Shown: piece after piece, positions 1 through 7,938 of the stretch
How the letters are laid out: each line of letters opens with the position of its first letter
Numbering within the stretch: the first letter of the stretch is position 1
NCBI GenBank assembly: GCA_020354155.1
Contig: CP070644.1
Span: forward strand, 1,990,204-2,018,537
DNA length: 28,334 nt
Direction: 5' to 3'
DNA from: Nitrospiraceae bacterium
GTDB lineage: Bacteria > Nitrospirota > Thermodesulfovibrionia > UBA6902
Notes under the pieces: generated by a model
What the model saw: only the letters and a program-made list of their open reading frames with translations
Told to the model about the DNA's origin: nothing
The model's database searches: none
Made by a program: the position numbers and the translations under genes

Positions 1-1237
1 GAATAACAAATGTTGCAACTGCTGTATAGCCTGCAGTTGCGGCTACGCCAACAAACTGAACGGACATCTGAGCTGAGATGGTACCGATGCCTTCAGCGAG
101 GCCCTGTCCGCTGAATATCCCCAGCCCTGAAGATGCAAAGACACCGGCAAGCATCGTGCCCGTAATCCCGCCCACTCCGTGTCCCGGGAAGACGTCCAGA
201 GAATCATCAACCTTCAGAACAGTTTTCATATATAACACTGCGTTAAAACAGACAATACCGGCTATGATGCCAATGACCAATGCTCCTGCCGGCCCTACGA
301 AACCGGATGCGGGTGTTATGGTGCCTAAACCTGCAACCATACCGGTCACTGTACCGAGAGCAGTAGGCTTGCCGAATTTTTTCCACTCATAAAACATCCA
401 TGTCATCGCCCCTGCAGCAGCGGAAATATGAGTAACCAGCATCGCCATAGCAGCATCTCCGTTTGCGGCAAGTGCGCTTCCACCGTTGAATCCGAACCAG
501 CCCACCCACAACATGCCCGCTCCTTTGACGGTCATGGTCATGTTATGGGGAGGCATCGATGAATGAGGAAAGCCGTCACGATGTCCCAGTACAAGGGCAG
601 CCACAAGGGATGCAACGCCGGCTGTGATATGTACTACCGTGCCTCCGGCAAAATCAAGGAGCCCCATCTCCTGCAGCCAGCCTCCGCCCCATACCCAGTG
701 AGTAATTGGACAATAGACAGCAATCAGCCATAATGCAGAAAAGAGCAATATTGAGGAGAACTTCATCCGCTCCGCAAACCCGCCTATTATAAGCGCCGGG
801 GTGATAATGGCAAAGGTCATCTGAAAAAGCGCAAAGAGGGACTCAGGGATTGTGCCGCTGAGCGTGCCTTCCAGCATGCCTGCAAAGAACATCTTTGAAA
901 GCCCTCCTGTGAAGGCATTCCCATCAGAAAAGGCAATGCTGTAACCGCCGGCAAGCCAGAGGATAGTAACAATGCCTGATATTGCAAAACACTGCAGCAG
1001 TACGGAGAGCACATTCTTTGTCCTTACCAATCCGCCGTAGAATAATGCCAGACCCGGCAGGGTCATAAAAAGAACGAGGGCAGTTGCAACCAGTATCCAT
1101 GCTGTGTCACCTGTATCCAGTGTTGCTGTTTCCCCTGCAAACGCCGAGCCTCCCATGATAAGGAAGGAGATAATCAAGAGTATAACTTTACTTCCTAAAT
1201 TTTGATTTTTAATTTTTGATGTTTGATTTTTTATCAC
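1..1237 (-). CDS. amtB: Ammonium transporter, AmtB/Mep type (amt1); 3' end runs off the window
   Basis: Hand translation from GTG at 1237 (GTGA overlap with the native glnK1 stop; GAGG 7 nt upstream) is open to position 1. Motifs: DTGDTAWILVATALVLFMTLPGLALFYGG, FQMTFAIITPAL, DFAGGTVVH, GWFGFN, DDSLDVFPGHG. Absent from the ORF track because there is no stop in the window. Confidence 0.95.
   Translation of the reverse strand, partial: MIKNQTSKIKNQNLGSKVILLIISFLIMGGSAFAGETATLDTGDTAWILVATALVLFMTLPGLALFYGGLVRTKNVLSVLLQCFAISGIVTILWLAGGYSIAFSDGNAFTGGLSKMFFAGMLEGTLSGTIPESLFALFQMTFAIITPALIIGGFAERMKFSSILLFSALWLIAVYCPITHWVWGGGWLQEMGLLDFAGGTVVHITAGVASLVAALVLGHRDGFPHSSMPPHNMTMTVKGAGMLWVGWFGFNGGSALAANGDAAMAMLVTHISAAAGAMTWMFYEWKKFGKPTALGTVTGMVAGLGTITPASGFVGPAGALVIGIIAGIVCFNAVLYMKTVLKVDDSLDVFPGHGVGGITGTMLAGVFASSGLGIFSGQGLAEGIGTISAQMSVQFVGVAATAGYTAVATFVI
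1200..1234. repeat. Five imperfect tandem heptamers (consensus TTTTGAT)
   Basis: TTTTGAT TTTTAAT TTTTGAT GTTTGAT TTTTTAT read directly at 1200-1234, inside the first codons of amt1. Confidence 0.7.
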
Positions 1238-1571
1238 AGTGCTTCCTCGCCCCTTTCTCCCGTTCTTATTCTGATGACACCTTCAAGGTCGTAGACAAAG
1301 ATCTTGCCTCACCTATCTCGCCCGTGTTCGCGCTTGTCTGGATTGCGGAGAGGATAGCATCCAGTTTTTCCCCCTGTACAGGCACCTCGACCTTTATCTT
1401 TGGCAGGAACTGGACCTCGTATTCCAGTCCTCTGTATACCTCCATATGCCCTTTCCATCTGCCGAATCCCTTAACCTCTATGGCAGTCATGCTCTGTACG
1501 TTAATTTCCGTGAGTGCCTTTCTCACATCATCGAGCTTGAAGTGCTTGATGATTGCTGCAACCATTTTCAC
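1234..1571 (-). pseudogene. glnK: PII/GlnK paralogue (glnK1) with a 1-nt deletion frameshift
   Basis: GTG start with GGAGG SD. It reads GGT GA GGC AAG where glnK2 has GGA GAC GGG AAA (one base missing between 1308 and 1309). Restoring it gives [25 protein letters not shown] ending at 1234 (339 nt, the same length as glnK2). As written it stops early at 1266. Confidence 0.9.
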
Positions 1572-1616
1572 GGGACATCCCTCCCGATTTGTAATAATAA
1601 AAATCAGGAAAGAGAT

Positions 1617-1632
1617 ATCAAGATGCGTGCCA
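1617..1632 (-). promoter_or_regulatory. Degenerate sigma54 promoter of glnK1-amt1
   Basis: TGGCACGCATCTTGAT: perfect -24 box and correct spacing, but GA instead of GC at -12. Confidence 0.6.
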
Positions 1633-1671
1633 CAGAAAAAACCTTATTTTACGAGAGGGATGGATGCGGGA

Positions 1672-1710
1672 AACCCTACAAAATTGTTATAACTTCAATT
1701 TTGTAGGGTT
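1672..1710. promoter_or_regulatory. Paired upstream activator-like site forming a perfect 15-bp inverted repeat
   Basis: AACCCTACAAAATTG-N9-CAATTTTGTAGGGTT. Contains ACAAAATTGT (1678-1687) and TCAATTTTGT (1695-1704), similar to the sites at 3350 and 6326. Confidence 0.6.
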
Positions 1711-1769
1711 AAACGTTTTCAAAGATCAGTAACAAACCGAAGGTATCTATAAATTACTGAAGAGTACTT

Positions 1770-6244: not shown

Positions 6245-6260
6245 TGCGAAAACCATGCCA
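6245..6260 (-). promoter_or_regulatory. sigma54 promoter of HTH2-porin-amt3-glnK2
   Basis: TGGCATGGTTTTCGCA, canonical spacing. Confidence 0.8.
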
Positions 6261-6325
6261 AGATGTAAGCTCTTGAAAATAATGAAAAGATATTTCAGGA
6301 TAACGACTTTAATGTAGTTTAATTA

Positions 6326-6354
6326 ACAATTTTGTTATTTAAAGACAAATTTGT
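6326..6354. promoter_or_regulatory. Paired palindromic upstream activator-like site
   Basis: ACAATTTTGT-N9-ACAAATTTGT. Confidence 0.65.
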
Positions 6355-6385
6355 AGGTAATGGAGGCGGATAAAAAACAGGAGTA

Positions 6386-7879
6386 TCAGGAAAAAAGCTG
6401 CCTTTGGTCCTGCCGTAACTGAGTAAGATTTTCTTTAGTGAGCTTGAAAGAGTTTTTAAAAAGTCTTTGCATCACTGCAGCCAGCTGCCGAAACTTGTAG
6501 GCTTCATGGTGTGAGTCACCTCTCTGTTCAGACTCTCGCCAGCTTTTCTCGTCGGAAATACGCAGTTCAAGAGCAAGGGTGTGCTGCTCTGTTTTTTTAT
6601 CTATCTCCTTTCTTTTTTTATATACAGGTGTACCAGGGATAATTATCTCCCCGTTGCTGGTCAGGCGTTGAATCGGAACCGAATAATTTATCTTGCACTG
6701 GAACTTTTTGTGTTCCAGAGCGGAATGAGGATTGTTTTGCGTATTTATACTGAGAGCCATAAAAAAAGCTTCCGTGTTTCTCGTTAAGGTGTCCGCATCA
6801 GGTGCATAGACTTCCCCTTCACTCTGGGAAAGGCTGATCATGAGATTTCGTACTGCCTCGTTCATTTCTTCAGGGCTTTTGAACAGAGTTTGCGTGATAG
6901 AGGGTGATATGGTATTTTCCTGCAGGATAACACCTCTTTTTTGCAAGGCGTGAAAGAGCTTGAGCGTATCATGAATGTTCCTTAAAATAAAAGTAATTGC
7001 AAGCATGTCCCTGATAGTATGGGCTTCTCCCTCTACATTTTTTCCCAGTTTTGTAAACATACTTTCAGGACTTTTGAGTCGTGCCTTGATATTCACTATA
7101 TCCACATCAACCCCGTCACCACTTTTGAATTCGAGACCGTTTTTGCTGTCATTGAATTTCACTGACTCTTTGAGTTTGTGAAAAAACGTAGCAACCTTAA
7201 CGAATGCTCTTTGTGCAGGAACGGTGTCAGGCAGGTGCCCTGGATTTTCCCAGTCGTAATTATACAGATTATCCAGCCCCTGCCCCTGCATTTCCAGGTG
7301 CAGCCCCAATTGGGCATAATCATTTACGTCCTGATTGTCTTCCTCGATAGACTTGATCAGATGTGCAATTTTAAGGAGGGAACATGCCATGTGCTGCCAC
7401 TCCGGTGAAATGTTCATGCTTCTTCCTTTGTATCCGTCAAAGACATGGGGAAATTTTTTTGATGATGCAAGAAGAAATATATGCCTCGGGTCTTCATGAA
7501 CTAACGCTTTGAAATGTCTATCATTTAGTACTGTCTCAATCGTATCGATGGCATTCAGGCAGGAATCGTATAGACCGGCCAGATCAGAGCGTAGGGTGCC
7601 AAGTTCTCGTAGATGTTTCTTTATGTAAGGAAATAAGTATCGGAAGGAATAACGGTATGCTTTTCTTATGTAATCGAGGGCGCGATTCTTTTCGCAATCC
7701 TCCAGCTCAATTCCCCTGATCGTATCAAATCCACGGTTTCCCATCATTTGAGTGGCCTGCTTGATTGCTGAATTATAAGATTCAGCTTTCAACAGAAGGT
7801 ACGGTGCCATTTCCTCTCGATCAAGGATAGAACCGAAAATTTCGTGGTGTAGTTCCTGATGTAATGTTCTTTCCTTCAT
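6386..7879 (-). CDS. Divergent RelA/SpoT-synthetase-like nucleotidyltransferase (resembles TIGR04552/TIGR04562-type proteins)
   Basis: 497 aa with RSH-like motifs in order: R267-L-K269-SPE-S273-MFT-K277, IR-D291-MLAIT, N383-PHS, E438-LRISD, GDSH-H458-EA-Y461-K462. DPRHIFLLAS and WQHMACSLLKIAH recall the TIGR04552/04562 families (from memory, not searched). Confidence 0.7.
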   Translation of the reverse strand: MKERTLHQELHHEIFGSILDREEMAPYLLLKAESYNSAIKQATQMMGNRGFDTIRGIELEDCEKNRALDYIRKAYRYSFRYLFPYIKKHLRELGTLRSDLAGLYDSCLNAIDTIETVLNDRHFKALVHEDPRHIFLLASSKKFPHVFDGYKGRSMNISPEWQHMACSLLKIAHLIKSIEEDNQDVNDYAQLGLHLEMQGQGLDNLYNYDWENPGHLPDTVPAQRAFVKVATFFHKLKESVKFNDSKNGLEFKSGDGVDVDIVNIKARLKSPESMFTKLGKNVEGEAHTIRDMLAITFILRNIHDTLKLFHALQKRGVILQENTISPSITQTLFKSPEEMNEAVRNLMISLSQSEGEVYAPDADTLTRNTEAFFMALSINTQNNPHSALEHKKFQCKINYSVPIQRLTSNGEIIIPGTPVYKKRKEIDKKTEQHTLALELRISDEKSWRESEQRGDSHHEAYKFRQLAAVMQRLFKNSFKLTKENLTQLRQDQRQLFS

Positions 7880-7922
7880 AAACGTTCTCTCACTATTTTG
7901 CTGTATTAATGATAAATGAATT

Positions 7923-7938
7923 TGCGAAAACCATGCCA
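7923..7938 (-). promoter_or_regulatory. sigma54 promoter of the RSH-like gene
   Basis: TGGCATGGTTTTCGCA; the 17-mer at 7922-7938 is identical to 6244-6260. Confidence 0.8.

Follow-up and report, generated by a model that had tools for sequence, protein, structure and literature searches.

In Proteobacteria, NtrC and NifA activate σ54 promoters with -24/-12 elements from enhancers about 80-120 bp from the transcription start, with a DNA bend of the integration host factor (IHF) type, and their targets include amt, glnK (as in glnK-amtB), glnA and glutamate synthase genes. Here we describe an ammonium-scavenging gene cluster of the same general design in a 2.5-Mb genome assembly from the class Thermodesulfovibrionia (Nitrospirota). 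The cluster occupies the first ~8 kb of a stretch of 28,334 nucleotides (Nitrospiraceae bacterium, contig CP070644.1, positions 1,990,204 to 2,018,537; hereafter the window), and it comprises ammonium channel (amt) and PII (glnK) genes, two genes for very small helix-turn-helix (HTH) proteins, HTH1 and HTH2, and a gene for an enzyme resembling RelA/SpoT homologues (RSH). It is a σ54 nitrogen regulon of known kind to which conserved, undescribed mini-proteins and, locally, an RSH-like enzyme have been added. Unlike in the proteobacterial systems, the presumed activator has a GAF-type NifA architecture without a receiver domain, and nifH was not found in the genome (best Fer4_NifH match 54 bits); the upstream site reads ACA-N4-TGT instead of TGT-N10-ACA or the NtrC dyad, operons open with a gene that specifies no more than a DNA-binding domain, and glnD was not found in the family to which the genome belongs.

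The mini-proteins recall Fis, an NtrC-derived protein of Gammaproteobacteria, likewise a small protein that consists essentially of an enhancer-binding protein's HTH_8 domain, detached from the AAA+ part. However, Fis has ~98 amino acids (aa) and an N-terminal beta-hairpin arm, whereas the mini-proteins are 56-90 aa long, lack the arm, are closest to NifA and not to NtrC, and are encoded behind σ54 promoters inside the regulon on which they presumably act. The RSH-like enzyme shares the synthetase fold (Z 8) and the RxKxxxSxxxK and Asp motifs with TIGR04552/TIGR04562 proteins and with RelP and RelQ, yet it reaches only about half of the two NCBIfam cut-offs, and its own narrow family has no characterised member. 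Its control would be analogous to that of relA in Escherichia coli, an RSH-fold enzyme gene under σ54 nitrogen-stress control, which NtrC activates from a σ54 promoter (PMC4066584). In contrast to the E. coli enzyme, the protein described here is not a RelA/SpoT orthologue, its N-terminal half is a different one and it stays below the RelA_SpoT cut-off.

On the minus strand of the first 8 kb, open reading frames and Pfam/NCBIfam profiles revealed nine co-oriented genes in four putative transcription units: glnK1-amt1, HTH1-amt2, HTH2-porin-amt3-glnK2 and the RSH-like gene alone. A sequence-only reading of the window had listed the same genes, orientation and units, and profile matches and coordinates bear it out. 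When both strands of the whole genome were scanned for the exact σ54 pattern TGGCAY-N5-TYGCW, 30 matches were obtained. Three of them fall in this region (~0.1 expected per 8 kb), all on the coding strand and immediately 5' of HTH1, HTH2 and the RSH-like gene; they also fit the narrower form TGGCAC-N5-TTGCW, with GG at -24 and GC at -12. The promoter of the HTH1-amt2 unit (TGGCATAGTTCTCGCT, 3289-3304, minus strand) places the predicted transcript start approximately at the ATG, which would make the transcript leaderless; 11 nt separate the promoter 16-mer of the HTH2 operon (TGGCATGGTTTTCGCA, 6245-6260, minus strand) from the ATG, and the 16-mer in front of the RSH-like gene (7923-7938, minus strand) is identical to the latter. 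The earlier claim of a -24/-12 element on each unit thus holds exactly for three of them, whereas glnK1-amt1 has only a variant, TGGCACGCATCTTGAT (1617-1632, minus strand), in which GA replaces GC at -12. Five promoters, orthologous or paralogous to it, retain both this variant and the large inverted repeat that precedes it. The glnK1 promoter additionally overlaps a σ70-like element, TTGATA-16-TATTAT (σ70 scan match 1621-1594), and because of this overlap and the GA at -12 its assignment as σ54-like is less certain. The glnK-amt promoters of GA type, found in the window, in a second nitrogen locus of the genome (L020, ~7000-7080) and in four other loci (L011, L012, L014, L017), read TGG(C/T)AC-N5-CTTGAT and may form a dual or atypical promoter class. 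The genome encodes rpoN (Sigma54_DBD 203 bits) and about 18 genes with a Sigma54_activat domain.

Upstream of the promoters lies a second element, ACAAWWTTGT. Genome-wide, 17 exact copies compare with 14 expected from base composition; five of the copies (1678, 3350, 3371, 6326 and 6345) are located in this region, where ~0.05 are expected. Two exact copies, 21 bp apart, form the putative enhancer of HTH1-amt2 (3350-3380; slots -55 and -76), and two more, 19 bp apart, that of the HTH2 operon (6326-6354; slots -75 and -94). The RSH-like gene has a degenerate putative enhancer (7985-8027) of three sites, ACAAATTTAG, ACCATATTGT and ACTCTATTGT, at 8018-8027, 8005-8014 and 7985-7994 (slots -89, -76 and -56), exactly in the slots of related promoters. 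For glnK1-amt1, the motif scan gave an inverted pair, CCCTACAAAATTG..CAATTTTGTAGGG (1675-1707), at distances of -72/-55, unlike the slots of the exact promoters. The related upstream motif that had been noticed at all units is therefore exact at glnK1, HTH1 and HTH2 and degenerate at the RSH-like gene, and at glnK1 it stands at other distances. The slots were derived from 25 promoters preceding small HTH genes in many genera, aligned on the -24 element, in which ACAAWWTTGT-like sites occupy the fixed positions -95/-94, -89, -76/-75 and -57/-56. In many of these promoters an IHF-like WATCAANNNNTTR element lies between enhancer and promoter; such sites lie 5 nt upstream of the promoter 16-mer at HTH2 (TTTCAAGAGCTTA, 6266-6278, minus strand, one mismatch to WATCAANNNNTTR) and 6 nt upstream at the RSH-like gene (TATCAGAGAGTTA, 7945-7957, minus strand). 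The enhancer of the RSH-like gene is preceded at a short distance by a perfect hairpin rich in GC (GGGACACATCC..GGATGTGTCCC, 8046-8072), which may shield this unit from transcription arriving from upstream.

A genome-wide scan for this architecture, defined as the promoter plus at least two slot sites, returned four places, namely HTH1, HTH2, the RSH-like gene and a glutamate synthase operon, and none in the reversed sequence used as a control. Since only units of the amt cluster and the glutamate synthase operon were found, and since a related layout, the glnK1-like enhancer and promoter, precedes glnK3-amt4-GATase-glnA at 945 kb, the slot architecture is, judged from sequence, the mark of a nitrogen-assimilation regulon. 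The earlier proposal of σ54 nitrogen control for the units of the window agrees with this common architecture, which extends to glutamate synthase. The glutamate synthase operon (L111, genome ~2275700-2278480) is of the split, archaeal type and has its sites in the -74 and -57 slots behind which the σ54 promoter follows; its second gene encodes a Glu_synthase/4Fe-4S protein, and its first open reading frame (369 aa, starting with MC) gave no Pfam match. The second nitrogen locus (L020, genome 938000-952000) contains a 180-aa amt fragment, the enhancer and promoter, glnK3, amt4, a class-I glutamine amidotransferase gene and glnA.

The mini-proteins HTH1 (60 aa; 3097-3279, minus strand) and HTH2 (74 aa; 6009-6233, minus strand) are stand-alone HTH_8 proteins with scores of 44.1 and 39.2 bits, respectively, above the Pfam gathering score of 22, and the HTH_8 match begins already at residue 8-11. 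The best NCBIfam match of HTH1 is the NifA C-terminus, which HTH2 matches at E 1.5e-11. HTH1 orthologues are 60-74% identical, and the differences between mini-HTH orthologues concentrate at third codon positions (431/425/963 for the three positions); judged by this substitution pattern, the genes are real and under constraint at the protein level. HTH1-like small open frames (~60-140 aa, E 1e-10 to 1e-21) were detected in at least 84 of 121 sampled Thermodesulfovibrionia genomes, and these genomes usually give a second match in an open frame of ~515-530 aa, the activator. Beyond the class, mini-HTH genes were detected in two more Nitrospirota families, and searches of the families taken as Thermodesulfovibrio proper and of the large aerobic groups gave none. 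In every inspected locus the gene order is small HTH, (porin), amt, glnK and sometimes glnA, the mini-HTH gene stands directly behind the σ54 promoter, and the start codon follows the end of the promoter 16-mer by 11-25 nt, so that most loci have a leader of only ~0-9 nt, without a Shine-Dalgarno sequence. The arrangement is thus not unique to this contig, uniqueness being part of what had been named as speaking against the module: the mini-HTH gene heads σ54 amt operons class-wide. A literature search found no published description of the mini-proteins.

Within the genome, the closest paralog of both mini-proteins is the C-terminus of a 571-aa GAF-AAA+-HTH_8 protein (894268-895983; 51-57% identity), which scores 570 bits with the NifA equivalog model TIGR01817 (cut-off 528.85). 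Its gene lies 1.1 Mb from the cluster, and orthologous genes adjoin an HTH-porin-amt-glnK cluster in four other members of the class (L101-L104). As nifH was not found, this NifA-type protein most likely serves general nitrogen control. Two suggestions of the sequence-only reading are borne out here: the mini-proteins are activator-derived in the sense that the paralog nearest to them is a NifA-type activator's DNA-binding domain, and the same paralogy supplies a candidate for the cognate σ54 activator, to be sought elsewhere in the genome. The classical NifA site TGT-N10-ACA was also considered for the upstream regions and rejected, with TGT-to-ACA spacings of 9 and 11 nt and no such site in one promoter. 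The recognition helix of the mini-proteins is nearly invariant, LGITERMIGYK, and that of the activators reads LGITxRQ(I/L)GY(K/R); because of this consistent two-residue difference, the site preference of the mini-proteins may differ slightly from that of the activator. Structure prediction of HTH1 in complex with the activator's DNA-binding domain (residues 505-571) yielded a score of 0.33 (mark 0.34) and speaks neither for nor against an interaction.

With a probability of about 0.6, we read the locus as the ammonium-scavenging cluster of a σ54 nitrogen regulon with a NifA-type activator, feedback by the mini-HTH proteins and a recruited RSH-like enzyme. Under nitrogen limitation, the GAF-AAA+-HTH activator would bind the ACAAWWTTGT sites and open the σ54 promoters, with IHF helping to loop the DNA between enhancer and promoter. 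Each mini-protein would then be made as the first, nearly leaderless cistron of an activated operon and most likely return to the same or overlapping enhancer sites, where it would damp or shape activation as competition-type negative feedback. Because the mini-HTH gene is the first, leaderless cistron, the strength of such a decoy would track the firing of the promoter. The RSH-like enzyme would most likely make a nucleotide signal when nitrogen runs out, as judged by analogy with relA. A feedback layer and a signalling or modification output had already been put forward as possibilities in the sequence-only reading. The activators of σ54 promoters are thought to be controlled via their sensory and AAA+ domains; a conserved paralog that consists of the DNA-binding domain only and is expressed from the promoters on which the activator acts would offer another, simple means of adjusting enhancer occupancy. 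Additionally, the locus shows what nitrogen control may look like in a large, mostly uncultured anaerobic lineage, which uses a NifA-type activator while lacking nitrogenase and, in this family, apparently lacking GlnD too.

The RSH-like enzyme (497 aa; 6386-7879, minus strand), noticed by sub-threshold TIGR04552/TIGR04562 and RelA_SpoT matches, combines a helical N-terminal half with a C-terminal half of RelA/SpoT-synthetase fold in the predicted structure (AlphaFold2 model from 17 sequences, mean pLDDT score 86). In the VIA structure comparison, the C-terminal half aligned with SAS1, SAS2 and RelP at Z 8.0 over 162-174 residues; in the Foldseek search against the PDB the top 40 rows were all RSH proteins (E ~0.03), with the C-terminal half also matching Rel/RelA/SpoT, and AlphaFold DB clusters named RelA/SpoT-domain or TIGR04552 aligned over both halves of the enzyme. 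R267, K269, S273, K277 and D291, corresponding to the ATP-binding Arg/Lys/Ser/Lys and the catalytic Asp, are invariant in the 17 family sequences, and the enzyme keeps the ATP-side motifs of pyrophosphokinases. The model and these residues are in accord with the RSH fold that had been suggested from the letters. The family is narrow (75 matches in a profile search among 1.84 billion representatives, three of them near full length), and a canonical long Rel is encoded elsewhere in the genome. No description of the TIGR04552-like family was found in a literature search. Proteins ~60% identical to the Nitrospirota copies are present in Methylobacter, Crenothrix and other Methylococcaceae (L050-L100), which suggests transfer of the gene between phyla common to sediment and lake habitats.

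Within the window's family the enzyme was found in nine of 24 genomes, and 16 genomes of other families gave none. Of 80 RSH-like loci in GTDB genomes, about 14 lie within 10 kb of an HTH, amt or PII gene, and neighbour clustering over the 80 loci gave no gene family present in more than 12. A σ54 promoter precedes the gene in about seven loci, and the promoter together with slot sites was seen in only four of 89, comprising the window and two genomes of the same genus, one of which is represented twice among the loci. The proposal of a conserved module that includes the RSH-like enzyme was not borne out by this neighbourhood search. The family is equally common in Methylococcaceae, but its genes there show no nitrogen context and have upstream regions unrelated to that of the window; no σ54 promoter was found before the Methylococcaceae copies, the single apparent match being located inside an upstream coding region. 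As the full layout is confined to this genus, the RSH-like enzyme is, on the evidence of these comparisons, a recent, genus-level recruit to the regulon. In the three genomes of the genus the promoter, the IHF-like site and the slot sites are all kept, with enzymes 61-67% identical, and since they are kept despite 33-39% protein divergence the recruitment looks genuine. The gene can be regarded as a genus-level natural experiment in which a nucleotide-signalling enzyme is wired into a nitrogen regulon. Two metagenome-assembled genomes (L023:7550-8280 and L048) each encode two PII-like proteins with 28-43% identity to GlnK; the paired genes follow large membrane-protein genes and are situated 1-2.5 kb upstream of the RSH-like gene, in the same orientation.

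One of the two PII genes of the cluster, glnK1 (1234-1571, minus strand), carries a 1-nt deletion near 1308 (within 1294-1313), which shortens the product to 101 aa; the PII sequence goes on in a second frame, and the orthologues are intact and align over 112 aa. Since a contig from an independent sediment study spans 1250-1467 without an indel relative to the window, the frameshift is probably real in this population and not an assembly error. By the full-length P-II criterion, glnK1 is cut at profile position 84 (match to positions 1-84 only), whereas glnK2 (3510-3848, minus strand; E 2e-32) covers positions 1-102 of 102 and encodes an intact protein. None of 18 genomes sampled from the window's family and none of the nine from another family (f14) yielded a full-length GlnD, which many other Thermodesulfovibrionia families have. 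PII might therefore be controlled in an unusual way; however, the absence follows one lineage and gives no particular pointer to the RSH-like enzyme. That this enzyme stands in for GlnD is unlikely, as GlnD is missing family-wide while the enzyme occurs in nine of 24 genomes and in Methylococcaceae. RSH chemistry, moreover, is pyrophosphate transfer to nucleotides.

Several results weigh against the preferred reading. The two differences in the recognition helix could mean that the mini-proteins bind other DNA, the ACAAWWTTGT site differs from the classical NifA site TGT-N10-ACA, and the glnK1-type promoters, which lack the C at -12, may be σ70 promoters. Among the RNA runs searched, none contained the window sequence, and only fragmentary contigs from sediment metagenomes were retrieved. 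As to the RSH-like enzyme, each of its upstream sites has 1-2 mismatches, the protein falls below the NCBIfam cut-offs (67.9 vs 125 bits for TIGR04552 and 70.3 vs 140 for TIGR04562) and below the Pfam RelA_SpoT gathering score (16.9 vs 27 bits, E 0.008), its acceptor-side residues are unlike those of ppGpp synthetases, and most members of its family have no link to nitrogen genes. If the gene were unrelated to nitrogen, its position would be due to descent and its promoter a local copy of the HTH2 promoter without a selected role. The identity of the two promoter 16-mers, the degenerate enhancer, the restriction of the nitrogen link to one genus and a few relatives, and the other contexts of most family members, all Methylococcaceae ones included, fit this explanation. 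We nevertheless regard it as rather unlikely, given that the promoter, the IHF-like site and three correctly placed slot sites persisted in three genomes while the protein diverged; a σ54 promoter gives no transcription unless activated, so that expression of the gene would depend on a working enhancer.

The sign of the feedback and the identity of the activator can also be seen differently. The mini-proteins might act positively, as co-activators, as architectural factors or as a DNA-binding module supplied in trans to an activator lacking an HTH, resulting in positive feedback. Several AAA+ activators of the genome have no HTH detectable with a mini-protein query, Fis, itself an NtrC-derived DNA-binding domain, can stimulate σ54 promoters, and two to three close sites per promoter would permit mixed occupancy. 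A positive role nevertheless appears doubtful to us: the NifA-like activator has its own complete and closely related HTH, the bend is already supplied by the IHF-like site, and the mini-proteins are without any surface known to contact AAA+ domains. Still less probable is a different activator, either the response regulator that, paired with a histidine kinase, is encoded convergently to amt1, or some other member of the ~18 in the genome. The kinase and receiver-AAA+ pair does directly adjoin the left edge of the window, and the regulator's DNA-binding domain was lost in a gap and hence escapes comparison. The pair was, however, rejected as an NtrBC system, because it resembles AtoSC/ZraSR, has a membrane kinase and lacks synteny in relatives; among HTH paralogs the NifA-like activator is the nearest, and it stands beside the amt cluster in four other genomes. 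We consider improbable, to a similar degree, the more far-reaching view that the mini-HTH proteins are an undescribed layer of σ54 control, activator decoys made from the leaderless first cistron of the activated operons and conserved across anaerobic Nitrospirota, and that in this GlnD-less family the nitrogen-induced RSH-fold enzyme replaces the missing PII uridylylation input by a new nucleotide signal or modification.

The remaining genes of the cluster encode transport proteins. All three amt genes on the minus strand specify AmtB-type or related ammonium channels: amt1 (2-1237; Pfam Ammonium_transp E 2e-101, TIGR00836 397 bits), amt2 (1770-3092; Pfam E 1.5e-113, TIGR00836 441 bits) and amt3 (3880-5214), which is of the 'marine' subtype (TIGR03644 434 bits, cut-off 514; TIGR00836 405 bits). 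The 257-aa porin-like protein (5229-6002, minus strand) is an outer-membrane beta-barrel, probably of the Gcw_chp/TorF-like type, with a weak Porin_4 match, and the true start of its gene is likely the ATG at 5981. Its nearest Atlas clusters carry Gcw_chp (features 0.99) and the structures agree at TM scores of 0.70-0.88; a search against Pfam gave no PF09694 (Gcw_chp) match at E 0.01. In profile scans of the window proteins, no activator, glnA or glnD was found, as had been stated before for full-length genes. A GC-rich hairpin read from the sequence 3' of glnK2 (3440-3466, minus strand) likely marks the end of the HTH2 operon transcript; the terminator scan did not flag it, as no T run follows. 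The 3' end of amt1 is lost, as the gene leaves the window into a 100-N scaffold gap directly to the left. The same gap also truncates the convergent receiver-AAA+ activator gene, which follows a membrane histidine kinase gene of the AtoS/ZraS type (region left of the window, genome 1987734-1990203), so that the 'single contig' is a scaffold at this point. The remainder of the window contains housekeeping genes and toxin-antitoxin or Fic cassettes; at 17900-20900, PIN, Fic/SoFic-like and HTH_3 (HigA-like) genes, recognized by their Pfam domains, stand in a row.

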